Source: Vicinamibacteria bacterium
GTDB taxonomy: Bacteria; Acidobacteriota; Vicinamibacteria; Fen-336; JAGNNV01
NCBI GenBank assembly: GCA_044229175.1
Contig: JBGATM010000009.1
Location: forward strand, 71,700-135,699
DNA: 64,000 bases
Reading direction: 5' to 3'
The position numbers and the translations under genes were made by a program. Positions 7,723-27,429 of this stretch are shown one piece after another (the first letter of the stretch is position 1; every line of letters begins with the position of its first letter). The notes below the pieces were generated by a model, which had not been told where the DNA came from, made no database searches, and saw only the letters and a list, made by a program, of their open reading frames with translations.

Positions 7723-7731
7723 GAGGAAGCC

Positions 7732-8979: not shown

Positions 8980-9003
8980 ATCAAAAAGGTGAGGAAAAGA
9001 AAC

Positions 9004-10863: not shown

Positions 10864-10906
10864 GGCTCGTCCTAGCGGGCGGTCGGCGTTTCGCAGTCGT
10901 GGGGTC

Positions 10907-10957
10907 GTGGTCCTCCTCCCTCAGGACCACGGCCCCTCCTTTTGAAAGGGGTGCCGC
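10907..10957 (+). terminator. Two consecutive hairpins after nosZ (GTGGTCCT-N8-AGGACCAC, then CCCC-tccttttgaaa-GGGG). The second overlaps the putative nosB RBS.
   Basis: Inverted repeats read directly from the sequence. Lie in the 94-bp nosZ-nosB spacer. Confidence 0.3.
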
Positions 10958-11590
10958 ATGCGTGACTTCCTGAAACGGGCGAATGCCTTCCTGGACGCCC
11001 CCCTCGATCTTGGCCCCCGGGTGATGGTGCTCTGCGCGGCTCTGGCCCTCATCCCCACCTTCACCTCGCCCCTCTACACCATGACCATGTTCGCGCCCCA
11101 GTATCCCGACGGCCTGCGGCTGTTCATCTACAGCTACAAACTCGTGGGCGGGAACGGCGGTCAGGATGTCAAGGAGATCAACGTCCTGAACCACTACATC
11201 GGAATGCGTGATCTTGCCACCGAGGATTTCGGCGAATTCAAGTGGATGCCCTTCGTCATCGGCGCGTTTTCCCTTCTGTTCCTGCGCACCGTGGTGATGG
11301 GCAGGCTGACCCATCTGGTGGATTCTGTGGTCTTGTTCGTCTACTTCGGCGCCTTCGCCCTGTGGTCCTTCGGTTACAAGATGTGGAGCTATGGTCACAA
11401 CCTCGCCCCCACCGCCGCGGTGAAGGTGGCTCCCTTCATGCCGCCCATGTACGGGTACAAGCAGCTCGCGAACTTCGAGGTCTACTCGTATCCAGCGCTA
11501 GGGTCGTACGCCCTGGGCGCTTCGGCCCTCCTCTTGATCCTGGGCTTCGTGTGGGCGGCCCGAAGCGCCCGCCGGCCGTTTTCAGCCTGA
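10958..11590 (+). CDS. nosB: NosB-like polytopic membrane protein (the accessory gene that follows nosZ in clade II clusters).
   Basis: 210-aa protein with about 5 hydrophobic helices, immediately downstream of a Sec-type nosZ. The assignment rests on position and topology only. Confidence 0.5.
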   Translation: MRDFLKRANAFLDAPLDLGPRVMVLCAALALIPTFTSPLYTMTMFAPQYPDGLRLFIYSYKLVGGNGGQDVKEINVLNHYIGMRDLATEDFGEFKWMPFVIGAFSLLFLRTVVMGRLTHLVDSVVLFVYFGAFALWSFGYKMWSYGHNLAPTAAVKVAPFMPPMYGYKQLANFEVYSYPALGSYALGASALLLILGFVWAARSARRPFSA

Positions 11591-11597
11591 GCGCGAC

Positions 11598-12989
11598 ATG
11601 TTGACCGGGGCGATGGCGGTGATGCTGCTTCTGGGTTCGGGCGCGGCCCCGCAGCCGCCCGGCGACGACGGGGCGGTGACGCCGGGACAGGTGGAGGGCC
11701 GGCCGGCTCCGGGTGACCAGTCCCCCCTCCAGTCCCGCGTGGATGAGGCGGCCCCGGGCGCGATCATCGTGGTCCACGCCGGCACCTATCGAGGCGATCT
11801 GTTCCTCGATCGCCCCCTGACCCTCCGCGCCCAAGGCGAGGTGACCCTTGTCGGTTCGGGCCACGGCAGCGTGGTGCGCGTGCGCGCGGCCGATGTGACC
11901 ATCGAGGGCTTCAGCATCGACGGCATGCGCGGCGGCGACCTGGGTCGGGACTCGTCGGGCATTCATGTGACCGGTCGCGATGCGACGGTGAGGCGATGCC
12001 GTATCCGGAACTCACTCTTCGGGATCTACCTGCGCGAGTCCAGTGGAACGGTGGTGGAGGACACGGAGATCCTCGGCATTCCCGGCCTCGATCCGGGGGA
12101 GAAGGGCTCGGGAATTCACCTCTGGAACTCGCACGGGTTCCGGCTGGAGCGCAACGTGATCCGCGACGTGCGCGACGGGTTCTATGTGCAGTCCTCGACC
12201 GGCGGCGTGATTCGGGGGAACCGGGTCACCGATATCCGCTACGGCCTCCACTACATGTTTTCGGACGACAATCTGTTCGAGGACAACGTCTTCGAGAACG
12301 GGGCGGCCGGCGCGGCCCTCATGTACTCGAAACGGATCGTTTTCCGGCGGAACCAGTTCATCCGCAACCGCGGCTTCGCTTCGGTGGGTCTGCTCCTCAA
12401 GGTCTGTGACAACGTCCTGGCCGAGGACAATCTGCTCGCGGACAACGCGCGGGGCCTGTTCGTGGAGGGGTCGGAAAAGAACACATTCCGGCGGAATGTC
12501 ATCGCGGGATCGGACGTGGCCGTGGTCCTCTACGATTCGGTGTCGGGGCAGCGTTTCGAGTCCAACTCCTTCGTCTCCAACCGCTCGCCCCTGCTCCTCG
12601 TGGGCACGCGCACCGACACGATCTTCACCGGGAACTACTACACCGGAAACCTCGAGCCGGACCTCGACGGCGATGGAGCCAGCGATCGCCCCTTCACCCT
12701 CGGCAGCGTCTTCGATCACTTCCGGGGGAACGTGATCGCCGCGGATTTGCTGGTCGACACCCCGGCGGCCGAGGCCCTGGGCCTGGCGGAGCGGACGTTC
12801 CCGGTGCTCCGGAAGATCGCGGTTGCCGATGACCGCCCTCTGGCCAAGGCGCCGGAACTCCCGGCCGTGCCCGTGGCCGCGCGCGTGCGGGGCGCCGCCA
12901 GTCTCCTCGGCCTGCTGGTCTCGGCCGGGTTGATGCTTCTCGGTCTCGCGGGATTTCACCTCGGGCAGCGCGCGGGAGGGGCGGCATGA
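11598..12989 (+). CDS. nosD: NosD, periplasmic copper-processing protein with right-handed parallel beta-helix repeats.
   Basis: Repeated G(N/D)xI...N beta-helix motifs. Start codon overlaps the nosF start region (ATGA). Confidence 0.8.
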   Translation: MLTGAMAVMLLLGSGAAPQPPGDDGAVTPGQVEGRPAPGDQSPLQSRVDEAAPGAIIVVHAGTYRGDLFLDRPLTLRAQGEVTLVGSGHGSVVRVRAADVTIEGFSIDGMRGGDLGRDSSGIHVTGRDATVRRCRIRNSLFGIYLRESSGTVVEDTEILGIPGLDPGEKGSGIHLWNSHGFRLERNVIRDVRDGFYVQSSTGGVIRGNRVTDIRYGLHYMFSDDNLFEDNVFENGAAGAALMYSKRIVFRRNQFIRNRGFASVGLLLKVCDNVLAEDNLLADNARGLFVEGSEKNTFRRNVIAGSDVAVVLYDSVSGQRFESNSFVSNRSPLLLVGTRTDTIFTGNYYTGNLEPDLDGDGASDRPFTLGSVFDHFRGNVIAADLLVDTPAAEALGLAERTFPVLRKIAVADDRPLAKAPELPAVPVAARVRGAASLLGLLVSAGLMLLGLAGFHLGQRAGGAA

Positions 12990-13894
12990 TCTCGTTCCGC
13001 GGTTTCGTCAAGACCTACGGAAAGCACGAGGCGGTCAAGGGTCTCGACCTGAACGTGGGCCGGGGTGAGGTGGTGGCCCTCCTCGGACCCAACGGCTCCG
13101 GCAAGACCACGTCGCTCAAGGCCGCGGCCGGCCTGGTCAAGCCCACGGCCGGCGTGGTTCTGGTGGGGAACCCCGGCCGCCCCGCGAGCGAGCCCGAGGC
13201 GCGGCGCTGCCTTTCCTTCCTTCCTCAGCGCGTCGCTTTCCAGGATTCCCTCTCCGGCCAGGAGGTCTTGAACTTTCACCGCCAGATTCGCGGCGTCGAC
13301 GCGGCCCATGCCACCGCGGCCCTCGGTGTCGCTTCCCTCAATGGCGCGGTGGTCCGGGCGGTGTCCACGTACTCGGGCGGAATGCTCCAGCGTCTGGGCC
13401 TCGCGGTGGCGTTGCTTCCGGACGCCCCCGTATTCCTTCTGGACGAGCCCACCGCCGCGCTCGACCCCGACGGCCTGGAGGCGTTCTACAAGGTCATCGC
13501 GAAGTCGCGGGCGGACGGCCGCGCGGTCCTCTTCACTTCTCATCAGATGGGCGACGCCGAGCGGCTGGCCGACCGGTTCGCCATCCTGGTCGACGGCGTC
13601 CTTGTCGCCGACATCGGCGGACGCGAGATGAAGGACCGTCTGGCCGAACGGGGACACATGAGGCTTCGCGTACCCTCGCTCGACCCGTCAACCCTGGCCG
13701 GTCTGCGCGTCATGGCGCCCGAGGCGGTGTTCACGGATGGCGAACTCGTGGTTCCCGGACCCGCGGGCATGCGTCCCCGCGTCATCGAGCTGATCCTGGC
13801 TCGGGGACATCAGATCGTCGACCTGGTGGCCGAGGATGGCCGTCTCGACGATCTCTACCGCGAGATGGTCGGCCCTCGGGGAGAAGCCCGGTGA
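12986..13894 (+). CDS. nosF: NosF, ABC transporter ATP-binding protein.
   Basis: Walker A GPNGSGKTT. ABC signature YSGGMLQRL. Walker B FLLDEP. Confidence 0.8.
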   Translation: MISFRGFVKTYGKHEAVKGLDLNVGRGEVVALLGPNGSGKTTSLKAAAGLVKPTAGVVLVGNPGRPASEPEARRCLSFLPQRVAFQDSLSGQEVLNFHRQIRGVDAAHATAALGVASLNGAVVRAVSTYSGGMLQRLGLAVALLPDAPVFLLDEPTAALDPDGLEAFYKVIAKSRADGRAVLFTSHQMGDAERLADRFAILVDGVLVADIGGREMKDRLAERGHMRLRVPSLDPSTLAGLRVMAPEAVFTDGELVVPGPAGMRPRVIELILARGHQIVDLVAEDGRLDDLYREMVGPRGEAR

Positions 13895-14340
13895 AGCGCC
13901 TCGTGCTTCTGCTTTCCCTGGCGCTCGTCTCGTGCGATGGGGAACCGCGCCCCGAGGACCTGGTCAAAGGCCGGGACCTGTGCGCCACCTGTCGCATGCC
14001 CGTATCGGACATCCGCTTTGCCGCGCAGATCACCGCGCCCGGGGAACTGCCGCGATTCTTCGACGACCCTGGCTGCTTCGCCGAGTTCGTCCGGAGCGGG
14101 GAAGTGAAGGAGAAAGGGGCGGTCGCCTGGGTGGCGGACCATCGCACCGGGACCTGGGTGCGCGCCGATCGCGCGGTCTATACCCGCGTGGAGAACCTGG
14201 CCACACCGATGAACCACAAGCTGGTGGCGCATGAAAGCCCCGCCTCGCGGGATTCCGATCCTGCGGCCAGGGATGGGAAGCCTCTGTCCCTCCTGGAAGT
14301 CTTCGGCCCCAAGGGGCCTCCCACGGGTGCTTCATCATGA
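13891..14340 (+). CDS. nosL: NosL, copper chaperone lipoprotein.
   Basis: Lipobox LALVSC. CxxC-M motif CATCRM. Size about 150 aa. GTGA overlap with nosF. Confidence 0.7.
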   Translation: MKRLVLLLSLALVSCDGEPRPEDLVKGRDLCATCRMPVSDIRFAAQITAPGELPRFFDDPGCFAEFVRSGEVKEKGAVAWVADHRTGTWVRADRAVYTRVENLATPMNHKLVAHESPASRDSDPAARDGKPLSLLEVFGPKGPPTGASS

Positions 14341-15164
14341 ATCTTCGTTTGTTCGCGGCCGAGGAACTGAAGATCGCCCTCCGCTCGCGGTGGACCCAGA
14401 TCTTCGCCGTGGTGTTCGCGATCCTCGCCGGGGGAGTCGCCGCCGCGGGGTATGTGATTTCCGGCGGCCACGGCGTCCAGGATTTCGCGCGCACGTCCGC
14501 ATCGCTGGTTCACCTCGTGGTGCTGATCGTGCCCCTGGTGAGCCTGATGCTGGGCGTGCTTTCGCTGTCCCTGGAGCGGGGCGCCGCCGAGGTGGTCTTC
14601 GCTCTCCCCGTCTCCAGGCGGACCATCCTGCTCGGCCGGCTGCTCGGACTCTTCACCGCCCTCGCCCTGGCCCAGTCGTTCGGTTTTGGCCTTGCCGGGC
14701 TCCTCGTCTACACCCAGTCCGGTCCCGAGGGCATCGGCGATTTCGTCATCGTGCTGGCCGCTTCCTTCGTGGCCACGGCCGTGTTCCTTGCCCTCGCGGC
14801 GCTCCTCTCCGCGGACGCCTTCGGTCGAAGGCGCACGAAGGCCCTCGCGCTCGCGCTCGTCGCGTGGCTCGTGGGCGAAGTGTTCATCGATCTCGCCGCC
14901 CTCGGCCTTGCGACCTTCCTTCCCTCCGGCGCCGCTTCGCGCGTCCTCATCCTGGCGAGCCTCGTGAATCCCATCGGCGCCCTGCGCACGGGGGCGCTGC
15001 TTCTGGTGGAGGGCACGGGCGCTTTCGGCGCGGCCTCCCTCGCGCTGCTTCGCTTCACGCACGGGCCCGCGGGAGCGGGCGCGTTGATTGCGCTCTCGCT
15101 CATCGGCTGGATTCTCGTGCCCGCCTTCTGGGCGGGCCGTCGCCTCGAACGCGCCGACATCTAG
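14337..15164 (+). CDS. nosY: NosY, ABC-2 type permease.
   Basis: Six predicted TM helices. ATGA overlap with nosL. Sits in the nos context. Confidence 0.7.
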   Translation: MNLRLFAAEELKIALRSRWTQIFAVVFAILAGGVAAAGYVISGGHGVQDFARTSASLVHLVVLIVPLVSLMLGVLSLSLERGAAEVVFALPVSRRTILLGRLLGLFTALALAQSFGFGLAGLLVYTQSGPEGIGDFVIVLAASFVATAVFLALAALLSADAFGRRRTKALALALVAWLVGEVFIDLAALGLATFLPSGAASRVLILASLVNPIGALRTGALLLVEGTGAFGAASLALLRFTHGPAGAGALIALSLIGWILVPAFWAGRRLERADI

Positions 15165-15241: not shown

Positions 15242-15718
15242 CTATCGAGCGGGGTCCGGCCCCATGGTCGGGTCCCTGAGGCTGAGCGCCACCACCCCCA
15301 GGGCTTTGATCGCGCTCTCGACTTCCTCCCGGGTCAGGGCGTGAAGGGCCTTGTGAACCCCTGACTCGATGGTCGGTTCAGGCCGCCCCAGCAAAGCGAG
15401 TCCGGCCGGGGTGATCTGGAGCAGCGAACGCCGCCGATCGGGTCCATCGGAACGGCGAGAGAGCAACCCGCGGCTCACCAGCCGCTTCATCACCCCCGAG
15501 ACCGTGCTCGGATGCAGATGGAGAAGCCGGGCGAGACGGCCCGCGGGAAGGCCGGGGAATCGACTGACGAGCCGAAGAGCGAGCCGCTGGGGTCCGGTAA
15601 CCCCGAGGTCCTTCGCCATCCGCTTCGAGCGCTTCTGCAAAGCGTGATCGAGCGCCCACAGCTCCCGGAGGAAGGCCAGGTCCGGGCCGAGGTCGATCGG
15701 CGGATCGAGCGGTTTCAT
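15242..15718 (-). CDS. MarR-family transcriptional regulator.
   Basis: Winged-HTH region LVSRFPGLPAGRLARLLHLHPSTVSGVMKRLVSRGLLSR. ATGA overlap with the otsB stop. Confidence 0.75.
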   Translation of the reverse strand: MKPLDPPIDLGPDLAFLRELWALDHALQKRSKRMAKDLGVTGPQRLALRLVSRFPGLPAGRLARLLHLHPSTVSGVMKRLVSRGLLSRRSDGPDRRRSLLQITPAGLALLGRPEPTIESGVHKALHALTREEVESAIKALGVVALSLRDPTMGPDPAR

Positions 15719-16503
15719 CGGACCTGTCCGGCCGCGGCGATGAGGTCTCCCATCCGCGTCCATCGCTCGCGGAGGCCGATGAGGACCCGGAGGAAGGCGT
15801 CGATGTCGGCCTGGGACTTGAGGTAGAAATCCGCGCGCGAGGTGGCCTTGCGGCCCACGCGGACGGTAAGCAGGCGGCCCGGCTGGTCGAGGGCGAACAC
15901 GTCCTCGTCCGTCTCGTCGTCACCGACATAGATGGCGGTGTCGCAACGAAGGCGGGCGCGCTCCCGCTCCAGGGCGATGCCCTTGTGGGGCGCGTCCGAG
16001 GGGACGATGTTCACGACCTCGATCCCTCCGATGAGGCGAACGTCCTCGAGCCCCGCGGCCGCCCTCATGATCAGGTCCCGGACCCGCTTCTTGGAGCGGG
16101 AACGGCGGAAGTGGATGGCCAGGGAGTACGTCTTGTCTTCGATCTCGACCCCGACCTCGCCTTCCAGGAACTTTTCGAACAAGGGACGCCAGTCCTGGAC
16201 CCGCCGGTGGGTGTGCTGAGTCGCTCGCCATGGCTCAACTCCATGATTGCCCACCACGCCCCGAAGGCCCAGGCCCTTCACGCGCCTGGCGACATCGGAC
16301 AGCGCCCGTCCCGAGATGACCACGCATGGGTAGAGCACGGCCGCCCGCGCGAGAAGGCTCCGAGTGCCTGGCCGCATGGCCGCCTCCGGCGGATCATCGA
16401 CGATGGGGGCGAGCGTGCCGTCGAAATCGAAGGCGAGCAGGGTCTGCGACCAGGCGAAGGGCTCAATCAGAGCCTGCTGCGGTCCAGCCAGGATGTCCTT
16501 CAT
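15715..16503 (-). CDS. otsB: Trehalose-6-phosphate phosphatase OtsB (HAD family).
   Basis: Motif I FDFDGTL. Motif IYVGDDETDE. ATGA overlap with the otsA stop. The longer ORF-track version carries an Arg-rich N-terminal extension that overlaps otsA. Confidence 0.8.
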   Translation of the reverse strand: MKDILAGPQQALIEPFAWSQTLLAFDFDGTLAPIVDDPPEAAMRPGTRSLLARAAVLYPCVVISGRALSDVARRVKGLGLRGVVGNHGVEPWRATQHTHRRVQDWRPLFEKFLEGEVGVEIEDKTYSLAIHFRRSRSKKRVRDLIMRAAAGLEDVRLIGGIEVVNIVPSDAPHKGIALERERARLRCDTAIYVGDDETDEDVFALDQPGRLLTVRVGRKATSRADFYLKSQADIDAFLRVLIGLRERWTRMGDLIAAAGQVR

Positions 16504-18755
16504 GCTTCGACCCCCGGGAAATGGGCGGCGAAGCGGTCGCTCAGCCGGCCGGTGAGGCGATCGCGACGCCGCAGACGTGCGGCATCGCGCAGCATGCGTC
16601 CTCCCCAGCGATAGATGTTGAACTCGGCGACGAAGGCCCGCATGGAACGCAGGCGGGTTCTTTGCTCCTCGAGCGGCATGGTGAGAGCGGCGCCCAACGC
16701 CCCCGCCGATTCGTCGAGATCGTAGGGATTCACGATCAGGGCTTCGGTCAACTCCCGGGCCGCGCCCGTGAACTGGCTGAGCACGAGGACGCCGCGCTCG
16801 TCGTCGCGCGCGGCCACGAACTCCTTGGCCACGAGGTTCATGCCGTCGTCGAGGCTGCTGACGTAGCAGACATCGGCGGCCCGGTAGTAGCGGAACACGG
16901 TCGGAGGCTCGTGATGGGACGCCTTGAGGATGATCGGCTGGTAGGACGCGGCGCCGAAGCGGAGGTTGATCCTCCCGGCGATGGCTTCGACGCTCGCATT
17001 CAGGTCGCGGTAACGGTCGATGGCGGTCCGGCTGGGAGCCGCAAGCTGCACGAAGACGAACTTTCCCAGGAATTCCGGGCGAAGCTCGAGCAGCCGCTCG
17101 ACGGCGAGGAGCCGCTCCTCGATGCCCTTGGTGTAGTCGAGCCGATCGACGCCTACGCCGAGCAGCGTGCTCTCGGGAAGCTGGAGCTCGGCCAGGACGC
17201 TGCGCCGGCACTCGGCGGCCGGAGGGAGGTCAGCGAGCCAGCGAACCGGCCACTCGAGGGAAATCGGGTAGGGCCGGATCAAGGTGCTCCGGCCCTGTTG
17301 GACGACCGCCTGTCTCTCGCGATCGATTCGCGACTCGAGATAGCGGTCGACCGAATCCATGAAGTTGTTGCAGTGCGCCTGAGTGTGGAAGCCCAGCATG
17401 CTGGCGCCGAGCATGCCATCGAGCAGCTCCTCCCGCCAGGGGCATATTCCGAAACGTTCGGCGTTCGGCCAGGGGATGTGCCAGAAGCCGATCACGGTGG
17501 CACGCGGCAGTTGCTCGCGGATCAGGCGCGGCGCGAGGGCGAGGTGATAGTCCTGGATCAGGACGATCGGATCCTCGATCTCGGCTTCCGCGCAGACCGC
17601 ATCCGCGAACTTCCGGTTCACCGCCTGATAGTGGTTCCAGTCGGTGGTGCGGAAAAGAGGCCGGGTATGGGCCACGTGGCACAGGGGCCAAAGGCCCTCG
17701 TTGGAGAAGCCGTAGTAATAGCCCTTCTCTTCCTCCTCGGTGAGCCAGACCCGCCGGATCGAATAGATCTTCTCTTCGGGAGGAACCATCACGCGGTCGT
17801 GCTTGTCGACAACGTCTCGATCGGCGGTGCCGCTGCCATGGGCGATCCACACCCCGGAACAGGCGCGCATGACCGGCTCGAGGGCGGTGACCAGGCCGCT
17901 CGCCGGATGCAGCACGCGAATGGAACCGTCGGGGGCGCGGTCGTGGATATAGGGTTCCCGGTTCGAGACCACCACGATCTTCTCGCCGTGGAGATTCCGC
18001 TTGAGGGTGTGCTTGAGCCGCTCGGCCGTCCACGCCCCGCTGTCGCCGTCCGCGTCCCGCTCGGTCATGATGTCGTCCACCAGTTCGCGAACGTCGCGCA
18101 GCAGCGGCCGGAATTCATCGCTCTGCGCCCCGCCCCTGAGAACACGCTGAAGCTGTCGGGTCCAGCCGCGCCAGGACAGCCGCACGGCGACGATGGTCAC
18201 GAGCGAGGCGCACAGGGCGAGCAGGAAGAACGCGATGAGGAGCAGATTTCGGCCCTGGGCCTCGCGCCGCTCGGCGAACCCCATGTCGTGAACCAGAATC
18301 ACGAAGCCGGCGATCCCCGCTTCGTCGACGATGGGAAGGCCGCTCAGGTGAGTGGTCCCTCCGGGAAGCGAAGCGACGTGCATCCACTCCACCGGCGGCG
18401 ACCCCGGGGGAAGTCCAGGAGGAAGCACATAGTCCTTCACCCGGTCGCAGCCGAAACCGGCCGGCGTGGTTCCCGCGGTCGCCACCAGGCGCCCCTCCGG
18501 GGCGCACGCGGAGACTCCGAGGATGCGTTCGTCCCGCACGAGGTTGGCGAGGGAGGTGCGGAGGTCGGCGGGCTTGCCCGACCGGAAGCCCGCGGCCAAG
18601 GCCGGGGCCGCGCCGCTGGCGGCCAGGCGGGCGCGCAGGGTGAGGTCCCGCTCCACCCAGCCCCGCGTGGTCTCCTGCATCACCAGAAAGGCGCCCCAGG
18701 TCAGCAGGCCCAGCCCGGCGACCAGAACGACAAGAAACTTGATGGGCTGCCGCAC
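16500..18755 (-). CDS. otsA: Trehalose-6-phosphate synthase OtsA (GT20) fused to an N-terminal two-TM periplasmic sensor-like domain.
   Basis: The C-terminal ~480 aa is a GT20 domain (WIHDYHL-like [18 protein letters not shown]-like GFWHIPWP). N-terminal TM1 is [22 protein letters not shown] ~150-aa extracytoplasmic segment follows. TM2 is [21 protein letters not shown]. The likely start is GTG 18755 (RQPIKF...); an alternative start is ATG 18848. Confidence 0.8.
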
Positions 18756-18776
18756 CGTAAAAGGATATTCTATTTT

Positions 18777-18808
18777 CAGTTGGTACTCCAACCGTTTGCC
18801 GCTATCCT
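18777..18808 (+). promoter_or_regulatory. Copy 1 of a conserved motif: palindrome CAGTTGG-tact-CCAACcG followed by TTTGCCGCTATCCT. Putative operator plus promoter.
   Basis: 33/38 identical to the copy at 19671-19706. Lies between the divergent otsA and cytochrome-lipoprotein genes, about 75 bp upstream of ATG 18883. TTGGTA-N17-TATCCT resembles a -35/-10 pair. Confidence 0.5.
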
Positions 18809-18882: not shown

Positions 18883-19641
18883 ATGGAAAGAAGATTAGCC
18901 GCATCAATGCTCAGAACCTCGAGGCTCGGCTTGGCCATGATCCCGGGAGTTCTGCTTGTCACATCCCTCCTGATCGCCGGCTGCTCATCAAGCCCGGCCC
19001 CCGGACAACCCGTGCCCTCCCCGACCGGGTCACCTGCCGTTGCCGGCCAGACGCTCCCGACGGCAACGGAGTCGGTCGCGCGGACCGAAAGTGAACGGCC
19101 GGTCGCCGCCGCCACTCCCGGGAAGACTTCCCCCCCGAAGGCTGAGACGGTGTCTCCGAACGCGTCACCGCGGGGCTCGGCGCCTCCTGCTCCCGCCCCG
19201 GTCGCCCCACAGCAAGTTCCGGACAAGGAATCGACGCCAGCCCCCCATCCCGAGTCAACCATCGCCCCGCCCGCGAGCTCACCGCCACCCCCCGTCGCTG
19301 CCCATGTGCCCATCGCCGTGGACATCGGCGGCCTCGTCGAGGTCGGCCCCACAAAGCCCGGCCTCGTCCGGATCGGGGCCGACAAGTGCAAGCTCTGCCA
19401 CAAGCTCCAGTTCACCTCCTGGGCCAAGACCGTTCACGCTGCCCGTACTCCGCCGCTGGACTGCGAGTCCTGCCACGGTCCGGGCAGCGAGTACAAGAGC
19501 CTCGCGATCATGAAGGACGTGGGGAAGGCGCGTGCCGCGGGCCTGGTGATTCCCACACGCGCGTTCTGCTCCAAGTGTCACACCAGCGGCTGGAGCGACG
19601 ATTTGCTCAAGCGGACGCATGAGCACAAGACCGTGAACTAG
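18883..19641 (+). CDS. Lipoprotein with a Pro/Ala/Ser-rich linker and a C-terminal triheme c-type cytochrome domain.
   Basis: Lipobox LLIAGCSS. Low-complexity linker of about 120 aa. Three CxxCH motifs: CKLCH, CESCH, CSKCH. Confidence 0.6.
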   Translation: MERRLAASMLRTSRLGLAMIPGVLLVTSLLIAGCSSSPAPGQPVPSPTGSPAVAGQTLPTATESVARTESERPVAAATPGKTSPPKAETVSPNASPRGSAPPAPAPVAPQQVPDKESTPAPHPESTIAPPASSPPPPVAAHVPIAVDIGGLVEVGPTKPGLVRIGADKCKLCHKLQFTSWAKTVHAARTPPLDCESCHGPGSEYKSLAIMKDVGKARAAGLVIPTRAFCSKCHTSGWSDDLLKRTHEHKTVN

Positions 19642-19672: not shown

Positions 19673-19704
19673 CAGTTGGTGCTCCAACTGTTTACCGCTA
19701 TCCT
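19673..19704 (+). promoter_or_regulatory. Copy 2 of the motif: perfect 7-bp inverted repeat CAGTTGG-tgct-CCAACTG followed by TTTACCGCTATCCT, immediately upstream of the GH15 gene ATG (19715).
   Basis: Direct repeat of copy 1. The spacing implies a leaderless or near-leaderless transcript. Confidence 0.5.
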
Positions 19705-19714
19705 TCCCTGGACC

Positions 19715-21481
19715 ATGCACCTCGAGGACCTCGGACTCATCGGGAATTGTCAGTATTCGGCCCTGGTGGATCGTTCCGGGAGCGTGGTCTGGTGTTGCCT
19801 TCCCCGATTCGACTCCGAGCCGGTCTTTTCGTCGCTCCTCGACGCGGAGAAGGGCGGCCGCTTCGAGATCGGGCCCGAGAGCGGCGAGCGCGGCGAACAG
19901 CGGTACATCGAAAACACCAATGTCCTGGAAACCCGGTTCGAGACGAAGGCCGGGTCCTTCCGGATCGTCGACTTCGCGCCGCGCTTCGTCCAGTTCGATC
20001 GCATCTTCAGGCCCACCCAGCTCATTCGCATCGTGGAGCCCCTGGAAGGGACACCGCGCATTCGCGTGTCCTGCGAGCCGCGGCTCGGCTGGTCCAAAGC
20101 CGTGCCGGATCGAGTCTTCGGCTCCAACCACGTCCGCTACGAGGGCTTCGCCTCCCATGTGAGACTGACGAGCGACGTGCCCGTGTCCTATCTCTCCGGG
20201 CAGCCGTTCGCTCTTACCAGCCGCAAGCATCTGGTCCTCACCTGGGGCGCGCCGATAGAGGAGGCGCTTGCCCCTCTCGCCTCCCGCTTCCTGGGAGAGA
20301 CCCTGCGCTACTGGCAGCGATGGGTGATGCAGTGCAACGTGCCGGCCGCGTTCCAGAACGAGGTCATTCGCTCCGCCCTGGTCCTCAAGCTCCATTGCTT
20401 CGAAGACACGGGGGCCATCGTCGCGGCCATGACCACCTCCCTTCCCGAGGCGCCCGGCTCGGGCCGCACCTGGGACTACCGCTACTGCTGGCTGCGCGAC
20501 GCGTATTACAGCCTCGGCGCCTTCCGCCTCCTGGGTCAGTTCGAAGAGCGTGAACACTTCGTGAACTATCTCTTCGACGTGGCGGGCGGAGCGCCGGATC
20601 TCCAGCTCAATCCGCTCTATCGCGTGGACGGCAGTTCGGACCTGAGCGAGAGCGTGCAGGAAGGCTGGGCCGGCTACGAGGGGAACGGCCCGGTGCGGGT
20701 CGGAAACGCGGCGGCCAAGCACACCCAGAACGACATCTTCGGGGAGATGGTCCTGGCCCTGGCGCCCGTCTATCTCGACGAGCGCTTCCAGGCGGAGCGT
20801 TCCCCCCAGGCCCTCGACCTGCTGACCCGTCTCGCGCGCCGGGCCGTGGAAGTCGCGGGCACCCCGGACGCGGGCATCTGGGAATACCGGACGGACTGGA
20901 AGCCGCAGACCTTCTCGAGTCTCATGTGCTGGGCGGGAGCCGATCGGATGGCGAGGGTGGCGCGCATTCACAAGCCGGAGATTGCCGCCGAGTTCGAAAA
21001 AGCGGCGGGCAAGATCCGCGACCAGATCGTCCACGAGGCCTGGAGCGACCGGCTGTACTCCTTCGCGTCGAGCCACGGCGGTCACGATCTCGATGCCTCC
21101 CTGCTCCAGATGGCGACTCTCCGGTTCCTCCCCCCCGGTTCCCCCCACGTGCATCGAACCATCGAGGCGATCCGGAACGGGCTGTCCCGCGACGGGTGGC
21201 TCTTCCGCTACCGGGCCGATGACGGTTTCGGCCAGCCGGAGGTCGCCTTCGTCATCTGCTCCTTCTGGCTGGTGGAGGCCCTCGTCCGCACCGATCAGGT
21301 GGAGGAGGCGCGCGTGGTCATGGGCCGCATCATCGAAGCTCTGTCGCCGCTCGGTCTGCTGGCCGAGGACTACGACACGTCCGGCCGCAGGATGTGGGGC
21401 AACTTCCCCCAGGCCTACTCACACGTCGGCCTCATCCACGCGGCATTCGCGGCCTCGCCCCCGTGGACCGAGGTGCTGTGA
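19715..21481 (+). CDS. Glycoside hydrolase family 15 (glucoamylase/trehalase-like).
   Basis: N-terminal GLIGNCQYSALV...WCCLPRFDS hallmark of GH15 (bacterial trehalases/glucoamylases). Size about 590 aa. The ORF-track TTG start at 19676 lies inside the motif, so ATG 19715 is preferred. Confidence 0.8.
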   Translation: MHLEDLGLIGNCQYSALVDRSGSVVWCCLPRFDSEPVFSSLLDAEKGGRFEIGPESGERGEQRYIENTNVLETRFETKAGSFRIVDFAPRFVQFDRIFRPTQLIRIVEPLEGTPRIRVSCEPRLGWSKAVPDRVFGSNHVRYEGFASHVRLTSDVPVSYLSGQPFALTSRKHLVLTWGAPIEEALAPLASRFLGETLRYWQRWVMQCNVPAAFQNEVIRSALVLKLHCFEDTGAIVAAMTTSLPEAPGSGRTWDYRYCWLRDAYYSLGAFRLLGQFEEREHFVNYLFDVAGGAPDLQLNPLYRVDGSSDLSESVQEGWAGYEGNGPVRVGNAAAKHTQNDIFGEMVLALAPVYLDERFQAERSPQALDLLTRLARRAVEVAGTPDAGIWEYRTDWKPQTFSSLMCWAGADRMARVARIHKPEIAAEFEKAAGKIRDQIVHEAWSDRLYSFASSHGGHDLDASLLQMATLRFLPPGSPHVHRTIEAIRNGLSRDGWLFRYRADDGFGQPEVAFVICSFWLVEALVRTDQVEEARVVMGRIIEALSPLGLLAEDYDTSGRRMWGNFPQAYSHVGLIHAAFAASPPWTEVL

Positions 21482-21499: not shown

Positions 21500-22858
21500 A
21501 TGCTTAGGATCGTTCGCGGCTGGCTCGACCGGGTTCCCGACCTCGTCGCCTCACCGAGAGTCCGGAAATCGACCCTGCAGGTGCTCCCGTTCTGGTTCGC
21601 GGGCGCCATCGCGGGCCTGGTGGCGGTTGGCTACGCCCGGGCGTTCTCGATCCTCGAGGAGAACTTCCGGGCCGTGGCCACCCAATCGTCCTGGGTCTTG
21701 CTCATCGCCTGCCCCCTGGCCTTTTTCGCATCGTGGGCCCTCGTCTTCGTGTTCTCCCCCGAAGCGTCCGGCAGCGGTATCCCGCAACTGATGGCCGCGG
21801 CCGCGCCGAACAGCGGCAAGGCGATGGTGAACCGGCTCCTCAGCACGCGGGCTGCGGTGGTCAAGGTGCTGAGTTCGTGCATCGCCGTGGCCGGCGGCGG
21901 CGCCATCGGCCGTGAAGGCCCGACCCTTCAGATCTCGGGCGCGATCTTCCGGGCCGTCCAGGCCCGGCTGCCGAGCTTCTGGCCCCGCGTTCCCACATCT
22001 TCCATGCTGCTGGCCGGGGGCGCCGCCGGTCTCGCCGCGGCCTTCAACACACCCCTGGGCGGGATCGTCTACGCGATCGAGGAGCTGGCCCGGACCCATA
22101 TCGCCTCCTTTCGATCCGGTGTGCTCCACGCCGTCCTGGTGGCCGGCCTCGTCGCCCAGTTGATCCTGGGCCCCTACCTCTACCTCGGCTTTCCGAAGAT
22201 CGGCGTCTGGTCGAATCACGATCTTCCCTGGTGCGCGCTCCTTGGCGGCGCGGCTGGGCTGGTGGGGGCGTTGTGGGCGCGCGCTCTCTTCTCGGTATTC
22301 CAGTTCCGCGCACGCCTGAGAAGCATCCGGGCGCAGGCGGGCTTCGCCCTGGCCACCGGCCTCGCCTTCGCCACCCTCGTCATGCTGACCGGCCGCGCCA
22401 CCCTCGGTTCGGGCCGCGGGGTCATCGAGGATCTGCTCTTCGTCAGCCAGGCGCCGGCGGGCGCCGGACTGGTGCTTGGACGACTCGCGGGATCTTTCCT
22501 CTCGTTCTCGGCGGGCGGAGCCGGCGGAATCTTCGCGCCGGCCCTCGCCTCCGGCGCGGCCATGGCTTCGGCGCTCGCGCCCGCTTTCGCGCCCATCGAG
22601 CCGCGGCTCCTCATCGTGCTCGGCATGGTCGCGTTCCTGACCGGGGTCACGCGCACGCCTTTCACGTCGTTCGTACTGGTCCTCGAGATGACCGACCGGC
22701 ACTCCGCCCTGTTCCCCATGATGATCGCGGCCATGAGCGCATACGCGGCCAGTCATCTGGTGGATCACGAGTCCTTCTACGAGCGGGTGCGAGGTGTGAT
22801 CGTAGCCGCTGAGCCCGTGCCTCCCTCGGGGGCTGCCGCTCCGGTGAGGGAAGTTTGA
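21500..22858 (+). CDS. ClC-family chloride channel / H+-Cl- antiporter.
   Basis: Selectivity motifs GSGIP and GREGP, GxFxP-like GIFAP, multi-TM. Confidence 0.8.
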   Translation: MLRIVRGWLDRVPDLVASPRVRKSTLQVLPFWFAGAIAGLVAVGYARAFSILEENFRAVATQSSWVLLIACPLAFFASWALVFVFSPEASGSGIPQLMAAAAPNSGKAMVNRLLSTRAAVVKVLSSCIAVAGGGAIGREGPTLQISGAIFRAVQARLPSFWPRVPTSSMLLAGGAAGLAAAFNTPLGGIVYAIEELARTHIASFRSGVLHAVLVAGLVAQLILGPYLYLGFPKIGVWSNHDLPWCALLGGAAGLVGALWARALFSVFQFRARLRSIRAQAGFALATGLAFATLVMLTGRATLGSGRGVIEDLLFVSQAPAGAGLVLGRLAGSFLSFSAGGAGGIFAPALASGAAMASALAPAFAPIEPRLLIVLGMVAFLTGVTRTPFTSFVLVLEMTDRHSALFPMMIAAMSAYAASHLVDHESFYERVRGVIVAAEPVPPSGAAAPVREV

Positions 22859-22889
22859 TGCCCCGGAGTCTTCGTCCGCGTCCATTAGA

Positions 22890-24482
22890 GTGCCACCGGA
22901 CGTGATCAGCCCCGATCTCGCCGCGCCCGCCGAATCGGCGACCCGCTCCGTGGTCGAGTTGCTGTCCGTCGCCTGCCTGGTGGCCCTCTTTTCCAAGCGG
23001 GTGCGCATGCCCTACACCGTGGCCCTCGTGCTCGTGGGCATCGCGGTGGGCTTCTTCGAAGTGCTCCATCGCATCGAGATCTCGAAGGAAATCCTGCTCC
23101 TGGTCTTCCTCCCGCCCCTGCTGTTCGAGGGAACCCTGGCCATGGACCTCAAGAGCCTTCGGGCCCGATGGCTCGAGGTGTTGGTGCTCGCTCTGCCCGT
23201 CACCCTGCTTTCCTTCGCCGCCACCGGCCTGGTCGTGCACGAGATCAACGGGTACTCCTGGGGCGTGGCCCTTCTGGTCGCGGCCATGCTCGCGCCCACC
23301 GACCCCGTGAGCGTGCTCGCGATGTTCCGATCCCTGGGCGTCCCTCGTCCGGTGGCCATGCTGGTGGAGGGGGAGAGCGTCTTCAACGACGGCATCGGCG
23401 TCGTGCTCTTCCTCGTGGTGTTGAAGTATCTCGAGGGCGGCTCCACCGGACCTTCCGGCATGGTCGGCCTCTTTCTCTTCGAAGTGGTCGGAGGTCTGCT
23501 GCTGGGCGGGGTGGCCGCGTACCTGATTCACCGCCTGCTCGCCCAGATCGACGACCACTTGATCGAGGTGGTCATCTCGCTGGCCCTGGCCTACGGCGTC
23601 TATCTGCTGGCGGAGGCGGCCCACGTCTCCGGGGTCATGGCCGTGGTGGCCGCCGGCCTGATCATCGGCAACTTCGCCAAGGTGCACTCCATGTCGGCGC
23701 GCACCAGGCTGGCCCTCACCACTTTCTGGGAGGTGGCCGCCTACATCGCGAACTCCCTGGTCTTCCTGCTCATGGGCATCGCTCTGCAGAGCGCCGATCT
23801 GGTTCCCCTGGCGGGACGCTTCGCCCTGACCTTCGTGGGCATGACCCTCGCCCGGGCGGCCATCATCTGGGTGGCCGGAACGGCCCTGGCCGGGGCGGGA
23901 CGACCGTTTCCTCCCTCCTGGCGCGCCGTCGTCGCCTGGTCGGGACTGCGCGGGTCCATCCCGATCGCCCTGGTGCTGGGCATCGACGAGAGCGGATGGC
24001 AGGGCTCCGGCCACCCCTCTCATCAGGAACTCCTGACCCTCGTGTCCGGGGTGGTGCTCCTCTCGCTGCTGGTCCAGGGGCTCAGCATCGGGCCGCTGCT
24101 GCGGCGGCTGGGAATCCTTTCGCGCCCGCGGGGAGAGCAGGAACTCGAGCGCGTCACCGCCGACCGGATCCGGGCGGCCGCGTCTTCGAGGAGACTCGGG
24201 GAGCTTCACGAGACCGGTCAGGTCCCGCCCGGTATTCAATCGACGCTGGTGAAGGAGATCGAGGCCCGGGAGGCCGAGGCGACGCGCGCGCAGGAATCGC
24301 TGCTTCTTGTGTATCCGGAACGGGCCGATGCTCAAACCGGTGAGATTCGCCGCAGCCTGCTTCTGGCCGAACGAGCCGCCCTCGATCTCGCCCTTCACCA
24401 GGGCCACATCGACGCGCGCGTCGCGGAGGAGGCGACCCGGGATATCGACGACGCCCTGCTGGAGCTGCGCGAAGGGCACTGA
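22890..24482 (+). CDS. Na+/H+ antiporter, CPA1/NhaP type, with a C-terminal cytoplasmic regulatory domain.
   Basis: About 12 TM helices. NhaP-like motifs (ATDPVSVLAMF, FNDGIGVVLF). Start uncertain. Confidence 0.75.
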   Translation: MPPDVISPDLAAPAESATRSVVELLSVACLVALFSKRVRMPYTVALVLVGIAVGFFEVLHRIEISKEILLLVFLPPLLFEGTLAMDLKSLRARWLEVLVLALPVTLLSFAATGLVVHEINGYSWGVALLVAAMLAPTDPVSVLAMFRSLGVPRPVAMLVEGESVFNDGIGVVLFLVVLKYLEGGSTGPSGMVGLFLFEVVGGLLLGGVAAYLIHRLLAQIDDHLIEVVISLALAYGVYLLAEAAHVSGVMAVVAAGLIIGNFAKVHSMSARTRLALTTFWEVAAYIANSLVFLLMGIALQSADLVPLAGRFALTFVGMTLARAAIIWVAGTALAGAGRPFPPSWRAVVAWSGLRGSIPIALVLGIDESGWQGSGHPSHQELLTLVSGVVLLSLLVQGLSIGPLLRRLGILSRPRGEQELERVTADRIRAAASSRRLGELHETGQVPPGIQSTLVKEIEAREAEATRAQESLLLVYPERADAQTGEIRRSLLLAERAALDLALHQGHIDARVAEEATRDIDDALLELREGH

Positions 24483-24528
24483 CTCGAAACCCGCGTGACT
24501 CAGGGCGCGTTCTGTGCGCCCGCGGGCG

Positions 24529-25776
24529 TCAGACGGGCTCCACCGAGGGAGGCAGGGGTTCGGACAGGGGCGGGGCTTCGGGCGAATCAAACTCCAGGGG
24601 CGGGGATTTCAGAATGAGGGCCGGAAGCAGGGTCGTGCCAAGCGCGTACACCACCAGGCCGCCGAATAGCGTGGGGCTGATCTCGAATCGCTCCCGCAGG
24701 ATCCCGGCGATGACGAGGGTGAAGACCAGGGTTGGGAGAAGAGGAATGGCGGTTCGCAGCGCGTCTGCTTGCGCGGCGGCCAGCCGAAACCGGTGATGGA
24801 CCACGAGACTCCCGAGCCGCATGGGAACGCCGATGGCCAGAAAGACGAGACCCAGGCCGAGAGCCGGCCAGCTGAAATCGTCGGGTCTCAGTTCGGCGCC
24901 GGCATGGAAGAAGTAGAAGGGCACCGAGATCGATGCGAACGCCTCGACCGCGTGAAGCATCTGTTCCGAGGCCAGGGCAGGGAGCTTGCGGCGGAAGCGC
25001 TGGGCGGCAACTCCTACCAGAAAGGCGCCCACCAGGTAGTAGACACCCAGCTCCCGGGTGGCGAGGGCGCACAGCACGGCGACCATGAGCAGGAAGGCGA
25101 ATTCGGTCTTCGGCGCGTGCGGGACGATGAATCGCGCGAACGCTCGAAAGACGAGGGGGAGCGCCACCACCAGGGCCAGCAGGGCCAGCGCGGACAGGGT
25201 CAGGGTCTTGACGCTGCCGGACTTCAAGACCACGAAGAGCACGGTGAGAGCCATGATCTCCGTGCCGATGGCCTTGGCTCGAACCCAGAACGCCTCGCCC
25301 GGGGCCAGGCGCAGGGCGGGCAGGGAGTCGAGGATGAAGCCCGTGGACGGAGTCAGGAGGGCGAGGGCCACGAGCGCCGCGGGACGCCACTCGAGTTCGA
25401 CTGCGTTCATCAGGACCCAGGTCGAGGCCCCGAGCGCGGCCAGGCGCAACGCCAGGTGTTCGCCCAGGACCCGGGCCTCTCCCCGGAGTTCCGATCCGTT
25501 CACCTCGAGGCCGGCGAAGAGAAAGAGGGCGCTGATCCCGAGTGTCGCGAACAGGGCGATGGTCGGATCGTGATGAAAGAGGCCGAGCCCCGGTCCCGCG
25601 ATCGCCCCGAAGCAGAAGGCGGTCACGGCCGACGGAATCCGGTACCGTTGAAGCGCCTTGGGAACGATCAGGAGCGCGAACAGCAGGACCAGATAGCTCG
25701 CTTCGACCGAAAGCGTGAGGTCTGAAGGGAAGAGACCGTCGAGAAGAAGCGCGCCAGGAGCCACCCCACTGACCAT
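24529..25776 (-). CDS. Cation:proton antiporter, CPA2-like membrane protein.
   Basis: Polytopic membrane protein with a CPA2/NapA-like glycine-rich helix pattern. Confidence 0.65.
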   Translation of the reverse strand: MVSGVAPGALLLDGLFPSDLTLSVEASYLVLLFALLIVPKALQRYRIPSAVTAFCFGAIAGPGLGLFHHDPTIALFATLGISALFLFAGLEVNGSELRGEARVLGEHLALRLAALGASTWVLMNAVELEWRPAALVALALLTPSTGFILDSLPALRLAPGEAFWVRAKAIGTEIMALTVLFVVLKSGSVKTLTLSALALLALVVALPLVFRAFARFIVPHAPKTEFAFLLMVAVLCALATRELGVYYLVGAFLVGVAAQRFRRKLPALASEQMLHAVEAFASISVPFYFFHAGAELRPDDFSWPALGLGLVFLAIGVPMRLGSLVVHHRFRLAAAQADALRTAIPLLPTLVFTLVIAGILRERFEISPTLFGGLVVYALGTTLLPALILKSPPLEFDSPEAPPLSEPLPPSVEPV

Positions 25777-25809
25777 ACCATCGGCTGAGAAGCCGAGCGG
25801 TTCAGTCTC

Positions 25810-27369: not shown

Positions 27370-27429
27370 GCCCTGCTCCGGGAGACGTCATGGCGGGATG
27401 TCGCGCGACCCTGGAATCTCGACACTCGG

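Follow-up and report, generated by a model that had tools for sequence, protein, structure and literature searches.

Organization of the trehalose locus

The window, i.e. the whole 64-kb stretch of DNA analysed here, belongs to a genome of the Vicinamibacteria (Acidobacteriota) and contains a three-gene otsA operon on the minus strand and a divergently oriented hydrolase gene, with one copy of a palindrome in front of each.

15242..15718, minus strand: MarR-family regulator (Pfam MarR_2 and MarR)
15715..16503, minus strand: otsB, trehalose-6-phosphate phosphatase (Pfam Trehalose_PPase; TIGR00685, 90.6 bits against a cutoff of 68.05)
16500..18755, minus strand: long-form otsA, predicted membrane-anchored GT20 trehalose-6-phosphate synthase, 751 aa (open reading frame, Pfam and homologues)
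18777..18794, no strand: 18-bp palindrome CGGTTGGAGTACCAACTG, candidate operator, 22-39 nt ahead of the otsA start codon
19673..19690, no strand: second palindrome copy CAGTTGGTGCTCCAACTG, 25-42 nt before the probable GH15 start codon (ATG, 19715)
19715..21481, plus strand: GH15-family trehalase-like hydrolase, divergent from the otsA operon (Pfam TREH_N and Glyco_hydro_15)

The genes of the operon overlap successively by ATGA: at 16500-16503 the otsB ATG lies on the otsA stop, and at 15715-15718 otsB overlaps marR, the ATG of which occupies 15716-15718. Both overlaps are read directly in the sequence, in agreement with the translational coupling of otsA to otsB and then to marR given by the first-pass annotation. 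Among the loci compared, otsA is paired with otsB in L001-L011 and L013, and marR follows otsB in L001-L004, L006 and L008. The GH15 gene, which is TreH1-like by NCBIfam at a score below the cutoff, is directly divergent from otsA in L001, L002, L006, L008 and L011, and the linkage of this trehalase gene to otsA is kept across phyla. A CLC channel, two Na+/H+ exchangers and MscS are encoded nearby, within 9 kb; the GH15-CLC-NhaP synteny is conserved, and MscS genes adjoin the homologue at L010.

At up to three mismatches, the palindrome has only two sites in the 64 kb, with none expected from shuffled sequences, and orthologues keep its motif upstream of otsA. The copy before otsA overlaps a promoter-like TTGGAG-N18-TATCCT (18786-18791 and 18762-18767), and a TATCCT at 19699-19704 follows the second copy. 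These TTGG(A/T)G-N17/18-TATCCT pairs were picked by eye and are weak matches; scanning with the sigma-70 consensus revealed no promoter at the scan thresholds. The upstream palindrome was also examined by eye as a possible sigma-54 promoter, and this was rejected, as there is no GC at -12. The MarR protein encoded in the operon would be the candidate to bind the palindrome.

Membrane topology and the extracytoplasmic domain

The long OtsA is divided into five segments, all encoded on the minus strand.

18681..18743, minus strand: TM1, residues 5-25 (Kyte-Doolittle peak 2.42; within an uninterrupted AF2 helix, residues 2-48)
18246..18680, minus strand: predicted extracytoplasmic PAS-like/PDC (single-Cache-like) domain, residues 26-170, 145 aa
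18183..18245, minus strand: TM2, residues 171-191 (Kyte-Doolittle peak 2.95; helix 159-206 in the AF2 model)
17979..18182, minus strand: cytoplasmic linker, residues 192-259, 68 aa, helix-loop-helix-helix (conservation and AF2)
16500..17978, minus strand: GT20 (OtsA) catalytic domain, residues 260-751 (Pfam GT20, 5jij alignment)

This order is the one proposed in the first-pass annotation (TM1, a segment of about 150 aa, TM2, a linker of about 70 aa and GT20); the two intervening segments measure 145 and 68 aa, and the TM helices are conserved. A short basic cytoplasmic N-terminus (R2, K6) precedes TM1, and five arginines lie within 16 residues after TM2, as expected for the cytoplasmic side. 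The ectodomain contains a near-invariant cysteine pair, C84 (18504-18506) and C103 (18447-18449), which probably forms a disulfide that staples the domain. The cysteine pair and the arginine-rich stretch past TM2 together point to an extracytoplasmic location of residues 26-170, and the best explanation of these sequence features is a bitopic inner-membrane protein of N-in/C-in topology. TM1 was also considered as a signal peptide and rejected, for it has neither an AXA-type cleavage site nor a lipobox, and its helix continues into the ectodomain in the AF2 model. The ratio dN/dS is 0-0.14 in TM1 and 0.16-0.24 in the ectodomain, indicating purifying selection.

The AF2 model of the N-terminal region has a mean pLDDT of 81.7, exceeding 90 across most of the ectodomain; single-sequence AlphaFold on the full-length protein gave a pLDDT of 40 and no usable model. 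In the model, the ectodomain begins with a long helix and continues as an antiparallel sheet of five strands flanked by helices, and a last helix leads into TM2; this is the organization of the PDC fold. Structurally, it is matched best by extracytoplasmic sensor domains, all of them from histidine kinases or chemoreceptors, namely WalK, KinD, DctB, CitA, DcuS, PhoQ and CpxA. Moreover, the entire module from TM1 to the linker aligns with a full-length WalK model (Foldseek E-value of 5.3e-8 over 270 columns). The fold and this alignment bear out the earlier description of the topology as that of a sensor histidine kinase input module.

At the sequence level, Pfam and NCBIfam gave no significant family for the N-terminus. 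Cache profiles matched weakly, with dCache_3 found in seven of 68 members (best E-value of 3.2e-4) and sCache_3_2 in two of the 68, the window protein having no match. A profile search of the N-terminus against PDB sequences yielded nothing significant, PdtaS appearing at an E-value of 0.16. The membrane-proximal residues W33, D37, R41, D157 and R164 are invariant. The most variable ectodomain segment is the loop 99-122, which is 2 to 23 residues long across members. PDC domains usually bind their ligands at the equivalent loop, and no conserved small-molecule ligand constellation is evident in the ectodomain, the pocket loop varying in both sequence and length.

A linker with no HAMP match

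Of all the non-catalytic segments, the linker is the best conserved, exceeding the ectodomain, with the invariant residues D221, R223, W242 and R246 and a dN/dS of 0.015-0.21. The AF2 model places helices at 216-235 and 244-254 with low confidence. As a Pfam HAMP domain the linker was rejected by sequence: ten diverse linkers gave no match at E-values up to 10, and HAMP was absent from the 25 most often matched of 55 families (E-value up to 1, 68 members). The HAMP-like likeness implied by the Foldseek coverage of WalK falls in the low-confidence part of the model. The invariant residues beside the membrane and in the linker, taken with the highly variable loop 99-122, hint at signal transmission.

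These observations also bear on a simpler role, in which the module would only tether OtsA and mediate oligomerization or partner contact, with an ectodomain that senses nothing. In that case, cells would make trehalose right at the membrane that it protects, or beside a transporter or channel. OtsA enzymes are oligomeric, so that a dimerizing module could simply organize them, and the variable pocket loop with no evident ligand-binding constellation also fits. To our knowledge, no ligand of the WalK ectodomain is known. Partner contact by the module would parallel that of the WalK ectodomain and TM helices with WalH/WalI, and the best structural match is a WalK modelled in complex with its partner YycH (WalH) in 9a5d. 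However, a plain anchor needs one TM helix rather than a folded ectodomain of 145 aa under purifying selection across phyla, the invariant charged and aromatic residues of the linker suit signal transmission better than tethering, and no conserved partner gene adjoins otsA-otsB across phyla in the loci compared. We consider a purely structural role rather unlikely, and favour a sensory one in what follows.

The catalytic domain

The C-terminal part matches Pfam Glyco_transf_20 (PF00982) with an E-value of 2e-116 over residues 259-725, covering profile positions 2-471 of 473. In E. coli OtsA the key residues are R9, W85, H154, R262, K267, R300, D361 and E369. The best PDB sequence match of the domain is OtsA of M. 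thermoresistibile (5jij, E-value of 1.2e-84), and the alignment against it showed that the catalytic and substrate-binding motifs SNR, LWPLx... and DGMNLVAKE are retained. GT20 is the sole domain found C-terminal to the module by Pfam and NCBIfam, with HisKA/DHp and HATPase_c absent; the long OtsA thus resembles the input half of a kinase, yet is not a kinase. Its product is presumably trehalose-6-phosphate (T6P). The domain scores 412.1 bits against the cutoff of 564.85 for the NCBIfam OtsA equivalog TIGR02400, and it is 36% identical to a canonical short OtsA of L010, where one operon carries both the short and the long form. The substrate specificity of the long form could therefore differ. 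The short paralogue of L010, at 531 bits, is likewise under the TIGR02400 cutoff.

The L010 operon raises the further idea that the long form is a receptor whose product T6P serves as a regulatory metabolite, for example as the effector of the MarR protein of the operon, and not mainly as a precursor of bulk osmoprotectant. A short OtsA in the same operon would free the long form for such a specialized role, translational coupling ties a MarR regulator to the pathway, and T6P is a morphology signal in Arthrobacter (PMC5685639). Against this, the long form is the sole GT20 protein in the window and, within the stretches covered, in most of the loci, and it is directly coupled to OtsB, as would be expected of a simple biosynthetic pair. 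We hold a signalling output to be improbable.

The long form is a widespread family

An exhaustive HMMER search with the N-terminal module alone retrieved at least 609 representative clusters at E-values of 1e-3 or lower, including 286 at 1e-10 or lower. Among the best 150 module matches, 45 have at least 40 residues beyond the module end; 38 of these run into GT20, and the remaining seven begin with the GT20 motif, after which the sequence appears frameshifted. In two full-length searches, the best 120 homologues listed for each are about 740-763 aa long, with a few fragments and longer calls in the second, and coverage among the best homologues listed in the first is 94-100%. Long-form proteins are present in Vicinamibacteria, Thermoanaerobaculia, Terriglobales, Gemmatimonadaceae, Myxococcales/Polyangiales and Burkholderiales, and the named module matches come from Acidobacteriota, Gemmatimonadaceae, Myxococcota and Betaproteobacteria. 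A word-index search with the N-terminus alone, an insensitive method, found only two fragments, and tblastn of the module against plasmids gave no match.

The first-pass annotation had allowed for an N-terminal region that is not conserved in orthologues; the HMMER and full-length searches find it conserved across phyla. Its view of the fusion as peculiar to one gene has to be given up in favour of a large and widespread family annotated simply as 'trehalose-6-phosphate synthase', which exposes a gap in annotation. Our literature search found no paper describing a membrane-anchored or sensor-fused OtsA. GSU2337 of Geobacter sulfurreducens, described as 'containing a domain' similar to OtsA, may be a long-form member.

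Start codon and reading frame

The open reading frame and its orthologues place the otsA start at the GTG at 18755 and its TGA stop at 16500-16502, the longest open version of the frame beginning upstream at 18848. In four loci (L002, L003, L005 and L008), a stop closes the frame 0-3 codons before the position that corresponds to 18755, and three others (L004, L006 and L007) have ATG at that position. These stops and ATG codons identify GTG 18755 as the correct start, and confirm the 751-aa protein called in the first-pass annotation. The frame has a GC3 of 0.85 and a dN/dS far below 1 in each sub-region; together with the uniform lengths of the homologues, this argues that the N-terminus is not a chance extension of the open reading frame. 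No Shine-Dalgarno sequence was found upstream of the GTG. The promoter-like TATCCT lies 6 nt upstream of it, a spacing that fits an mRNA that is leaderless or has a very short leader, which would explain the missing Shine-Dalgarno sequence.

Canonical OtsA is a soluble protein of about 470 aa. This length, and a GTG start with no Shine-Dalgarno sequence, could be taken to mean that the real start lies after TM2 and that the N-terminal part represents leader sequence that is not translated, or the decayed remains of a gene upstream. Such an annotation artefact is very improbable, given the conserved start position, the selection along the whole N-terminus, the confident predicted fold, a length common to hundreds of homologues, and the TATCCT that accounts for the absent Shine-Dalgarno sequence. 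In addition, the orthologue consensus has neither a conserved start nor a conserved internal Met between TM2 and GT20, where the earlier annotation had envisaged that translation might begin.

Proposed control of trehalose synthesis

Soil bacteria rely on trehalose as a main protection against drought and salt, and OtsA-based synthesis is understood as being controlled by transcription and by cytoplasmic ions or metabolites. A sensor-kinase-type module preceding OtsA suggests that trehalose synthesis may be switched from outside the cell. As a whole, we favour with moderate confidence a membrane-bound OtsA in which a kinase-type input module gates synthesis, with MarR control in addition. The first 259 residues have the build of a WalK/CitA/DcuS-type input module and lead straight into strand β1 of GT20, whose catalytic motifs are intact. 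The ectodomain, which is probably a dimer, would shift its state upon a cue from the extracytoplasmic side or the membrane interface, and thereby regulate catalysis by GT20. By way of TM2 and the linker, the change would reach either the N-lobe of GT20, which binds the acceptor, or the oligomeric arrangement of GT20, so that T6P synthesis is raised or lowered. The translationally coupled OtsB would turn T6P into trehalose, and the co-transcribed MarR, acting at the 18-bp palindrome before the otsA operon and the divergent GH15 gene, would add transcriptional control. The cue would be osmotic or envelope-related, to which only the gene neighbourhood (CLC, Na+/H+ exchangers and MscS) points.

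A more specific version of this scheme, which we put forward tentatively as possible rather than probable, would make GT20 an unrecognized output domain: the PDC ectodomain would allosterically switch a GT-B enzyme through TM2 and a new, non-HAMP linker, and a conserved charge cluster near the membrane (D37, R41, D75, R77, D157, R163 and R164) could sense ionic strength or water potential as the cue. If such a receptor-enzyme exists, many soil bacteria would set trehalose or T6P synthesis within seconds, without transcription. An OtsA wired to a sensor ectodomain would provide a direct route from the exterior to compatible solutes in abundant and little-studied soil phyla (Acidobacteriota, Gemmatimonadota and Myxococcota). 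It would also be, with AlgC as the first, a second independent case in which a periplasmic sensor domain has a metabolic enzyme as its target instead of a kinase, cyclase or chemoreceptor, and a simple system for studying transmembrane signalling, since the enzyme rate is the readout.

Comparison with known systems

Compared to the canonical OtsA of E. coli (1gz5, 1uqt) and M. thermoresistibile (5jij), the C-terminal 492 residues of the long form align end to end with 5jij, whereas 259 extra N-terminal residues contribute two TM helices and an extracytoplasmic domain, and its GT20 domain represents a divergent subfamily. The locus is similar to canonical otsBA-type pathways in pairing with otsB, but the gene order here is otsA-otsB-marR. 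The kinases of the WalK/CitA/DcuS/PhoQ type share the arrangement TM1-PAS/PDC-TM2-HAMP/linker; by contrast, the long OtsA lacks HisKA, HATPase and a detectable HAMP, its output is a metabolic enzyme, and its sequence similarity to Cache/PAS domains is below threshold. Arthrobacter OtsA (PMC5685639) likewise has a sensing role beside catalysis, as a cytoplasmic sensor of osmotic stress; unlike the long form, it is soluble, has no membrane or extracytoplasmic module, and senses by T6P-dependent self-assembly.

The closest precedent is the long form of the phosphomannomutase AlgC, which is membrane-bound and carries a periplasmic dCache domain between two TM helices (Qian, Fei and Galperin, bioRxiv 10.1101/589796). 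They both follow the same design, TM-Cache/PDC-TM-cytoplasmic sugar-phosphate enzyme; for AlgC as well, some genomes have both a long and a short form, annotation missed the N-terminal part, and the sensor domain is predicted to regulate the enzyme (10.1101/589796). They differ in the sensor, a double Cache of about 200 aa in AlgC compared to a single PDC of 145 aa in the long OtsA, and in the enzyme, a phosphohexomutase compared to a GT-B glycosyltransferase. Moreover, AlgC occurs in Gammaproteobacteria, where it is linked to exopolysaccharide and pili, whereas the long OtsA occurs in Acidobacteriota, Gemmatimonadaceae, Myxococcota and Betaproteobacteria and is tied to trehalose. Altogether, the two proteins share a design class, a periplasmic sensor joined to a metabolic enzyme, and not a homologous family.

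Reading frame, start and membrane topology of long OtsA

The open frame of otsA runs on the minus strand from 18848 to 16500, and sequence comparison places its true start at the GTG codon at 18755, giving a protein of 751 residues, because orthologue stops close the frame just upstream or an orthologue has ATG at the same codon. The homologous loci fetched for this comparison comprise one from Myxococcaceae and eight orthologous ones from Acidobacteriota, six of which carry a Vicinamibacteria name. In four of them (L002, L003, L005 and L008) an in-frame stop lies 0-3 codons 5' of the start-equivalent codon, and in three others (L004, L006 and L007) this codon is ATG. The ATGA overlaps described in the first-pass annotation are seen in the window sequence, at 16500-16503 between otsA and otsB and at 15715-15718 between otsB and marR.

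The only Pfam domain of long OtsA is Glyco_transf_20 (GT20), which occupies the last ~490 residues (E 2e-116); the Pfam search found no domain in the first 259 residues, and no Pfam or NCBIfam model covers this N-terminal module. Hydropathy reproduced the segment sizes given earlier, with 145 residues between the two transmembrane (TM) helices and a linker of 68 residues after TM2. The elements of the module, from hydropathy (TM segments) and from an AlphaFold model (helices and strands), are:

Residues 5-25: TM1, [21 protein letters not shown], strong hydropathy peak
Residues 171-191: TM2, [21 protein letters not shown], strong hydropathy peak
Residues 2-48: helix running through TM1 into the periplasm, then two short helices
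Residues 78-84 and 90-95: strands of the ectodomain, then a short helix
Residues 124-130, 133-144 and 147-157: strands of the ectodomain
Residues 159-206: helix through TM2

The charges along the module agree with an N-in, C-in topology, with a basic tail ahead of TM1 (R2, K6), a stretch after TM2 that contains five Arg and no acidic residues, and balanced charges flanking the segment between the TM helices. It is the sole topology that gives the GT20 domain access to cytoplasmic substrates.

Conservation and spread of the N-terminal module

Comparison of the homologous sequences indicates that the N-terminal region is a real and conserved part of long OtsA. Against seven orthologues, the dN/dS values were 0.16-0.24 for the ectodomain, 0-0.14 for TM1, 0.02-0.13 for TM2, 0.015-0.21 for the linker and 0.04-0.11 for GT20. 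An exhaustive HMMER search of 1.84 billion cluster representatives with the 259-residue module alone yielded 609 matches at E <= 1e-3, 286 at <= 1e-10 and 55 at <= 1e-30. Most of the best 150 of the 609 are metagenomic fragments; 45 of these 150 reach the module end and extend at least 40 residues past it, of which 38 continue into GT20, and the other seven open with a GT20 motif (V.ILANREPY) followed by frameshifted-looking sequence. In two full-length searches (best 120 matches each), the homologues are 740-763 residues long with 94-100% coverage, except that the best 120 of the second search also contain a small number of clear fragments or longer calls. The homologues carry no source name beyond "trehalose-6-phosphate synthase" and the UDP-forming synonym. 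The listed homologues come from Vicinamibacteria, Thermoanaerobaculia, Terriglobales and Acidobacteriia on the Acidobacteriota side, and from Gemmatimonadaceae, Myxococcales, Polyangiales, "Deltaproteobacteria", Burkholderiales and Betaproteobacteria, so that retention of the region in orthologues is borne out across several phyla.

The alignment consensus has no conserved Met or other start between TM2 and GT20. As the module is also under selection (dN/dS well below 1) and widespread, the objection named in the first-pass annotation, an internal start after TM2, fails, and translation through the N-terminal region is upheld; an annotation artefact of this kind is excluded by the orthologue starts and stops, the selection and the lack of a conserved internal start.

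Predicted fold of the module

The AlphaFold model of residues 1-265, built from an alignment of 68 sequences after filtering at 70% identity, has a mean pLDDT of 81.7, exceeding 90 across most of the ectodomain. In this model the ectodomain has the element order of a PDC, or extracytoplasmic PAS-like, arrangement. In Foldseek, the module matched the model of full-length WalK best (9a5d_A, E 5.3e-8, 270 aligned columns); its resemblance to a kinase input module thus extends over the whole TM1-domain-TM2-linker unit. Together, the predicted fold and this match support the sensor-kinase-like topology proposed at first reading. Roadblock/LC7 proteins, which share a related alpha/beta sandwich, also appeared among the structure-search matches at lower coverage. 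Sequence-level kinship with known sensor families was not demonstrable by profile searches: a PDB profile search with the module gave nothing significant, the linker gave no signal with the HAMP profile, and weak Pfam matches to dCache_3, sCache_3_2, PAS, GAF and CHASE8 occurred in some members only.

Conserved residues and a possible mechanism

In the 68-sequence alignment, W33, D37, R41, L69, G150, R164, D221, R223, W242, R246 and N265 are invariant, and the near-invariant positions include D75, R77, C84, T94, P98, C103, D157, E214, F215 and P217. Of the 68 sequences, 67 carry C84, where strand 1 ends, and 67 carry C103, where the next helix begins; this Cys pair fits a putative disulfide in an oxidising compartment. 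Many conserved ectodomain residues line one face of the helix above TM1 (i, i+4, i+8), and others lie where strand 5 ends and where the helix that enters TM2 begins, all of these sites belonging to the membrane-proximal base. Loop 99-122 is the most variable part (entropy 2.58, length 2-23); PDC domains usually bind ligands in the equivalent loop. The linker is 60-65% identical, compared to 40-46% for the ectodomain. Because base and linker are conserved and loop 99-122 is variable, we infer a strongly constrained transmission path and a weakly constrained ligand pocket, a pattern compatible with a membrane-interface cue, lineage-specific ligands or a protein partner.

The best supported reading, which we favour by a modest degree, is that long OtsA is a putative receptor-enzyme whose ectodomain controls GT20. 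TM2 and the conserved linker would pass the state of the ectodomain on to GT20, which begins with its first strand right after the linker, and fast post-translational control of trehalose-6-phosphate (T6P) synthesis would thus be added to MarR-type transcriptional control. The main alternative, in which the module senses nothing and serves as an anchor in the membrane or as a scaffold for interactions, appears rather unlikely.

The GT20 enzyme and trehalose pathway genes

The GT20 domain can be aligned over its whole length with OtsA enzymes of solved structure, namely M. thermoresistibile 5jij (E 1.2e-84), fungal Tps1 and E. coli 1gz5/1uqt (~1e-66). It retains the motifs SNR, LWPLx[16 protein letters not shown] and DGMNLVAKE. 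Its TIGR02400 score of 412 bits is below the 564.85 cutoff, and by sequence it represents a divergent subfamily. The window OtsB is above its NCBIfam equivalog cutoff (90.6 vs 68.05 bits), and the gene divergent from otsA encodes a GH15 enzyme with a trehalase-type N-domain. A variant in which T6P from the long form serves chiefly as a signal is considered improbable.

The long otsA-otsB pair is present in every fetched Vicinamibacteria locus, in L009 (Myxococcaceae) and L013 (Myxococcales), and in L010 and L011, the protein of the latter belonging to a subgroup with Gemmatimonadaceae-named members; GH15 adjoins the pair in many of these loci. L010 has an operon-like run (6001-14253) of long otsA, otsB, a canonical short GT20 (490 residues, 36% identical to the GT20 of the long form), GH15 trehalase and a GlgE-like gene. 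Upstream of its long otsA are MscS channel genes and an amino-acid permease-Usp fusion. L009 (2656-4727) has two otsB paralogues after long otsA, whose products share 56% and 48% identity with the window OtsB; a high-GC frame between the two paralogues ends in MarR-like winged-helix sequence.

A shared palindrome and the genomic neighbourhood

The 18-bp palindrome CAGTTGG-N4-CCAACTG occurs at exactly two sites in the 64-kb window (<=3 mismatches), against an expectation of 0 by chance (100 shuffles). The features around the operon are:

7732-15164 (+): nitrous-oxide reductase (nos) cluster, on the other side of the operon
18777-18794: palindrome copy 1, 22-39 nt before the otsA start
18883-19641 (+): small three-haem, lipoprotein-like cytochrome c gene (LIAGC lipobox, three CxxCH motifs), between otsA and GH15
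19673-19690: palindrome copy 2, 25-42 nt before the likely GH15 ATG at 19715

Both copies overlap a TTGG(A/T)G hexamer, with TATCCT 17-18 nt further on and 6-10 nt before the start codon. This layout suggests a putative repressor site over a promoter and near-leaderless otsA and GH15 mRNAs, which, if so, would explain the missing Shine-Dalgarno sequence at otsA. The obvious candidate for a protein that binds there is MarR, the regulator co-transcribed with otsA. In orthologous loci, GH15 and otsA are directly divergent across a ~60-nt spacer with one motif copy, whereas in the window the cytochrome c gene separates them, with the motif on each side; this insertion is in none of the orthologous loci. 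Upstream of the cytochrome c gene is what seems the former GH15-directed half of a bidirectional promoter, with TATCCT at 18803-18808, so that this gene and the trehalose genes may be regulated together. A motif similar to the palindrome is found upstream of the L013 homologue; in L013 (4005-6841), long otsA-otsB comes directly after genes for a HAMP histidine kinase and a sigma-54-activating response regulator, and this lineage may use a different transcriptional input.

Beyond GH15 (21500-28383), the window has a series of genes for ion homeostasis and turgor, which encode a CLC channel, two Na+/H+ exchangers, an MscS-type channel and a TPR plus cNMP-binding protein. The order GH15-CLC-NhaP is kept in L001, and L003 and L008 retain part of it. 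The nos cluster encodes a multihaem/c-type cytochrome, NosZ (nos_propeller plus cupredoxin), NosD, an ABC ATPase, NosL, an ABC-2 permease and a 210-residue product with no Pfam match (10958-11590); it ends 78 nt from marR, which is on the opposite strand.

Comparison with known systems

Compatible-solute synthesis is under enzyme-level osmotic control in E. coli OtsA, which is stimulated by K+, and in cyanobacterial GgpS. Both respond to the cytoplasmic ionic milieu, whereas the putative transmembrane sensor fusion of long OtsA would be a different solution. A full-text search with partial journal coverage found no description of a membrane-anchored or sensor-fused OtsA. The component parts, GT20/OtsA and PDC sensor modules, are already known, and long OtsA is widespread and unannotated at its N-terminus rather than a new category. 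With its architecture on solid ground, long OtsA offers a direct test of whether a metabolic enzyme is under transmembrane control. The one documented precedent for fusing a Cache/PDC domain between two TM helices to a sugar-metabolic enzyme is the long form of the phosphomannomutase AlgC, whose periplasmic Cache domain is predicted to confer sensor regulation (10.1101/589796); long OtsA shares this arrangement, and in both cases the regulation is a prediction. As L010 carries both forms, long and short OtsA can coexist, as with AlgC.
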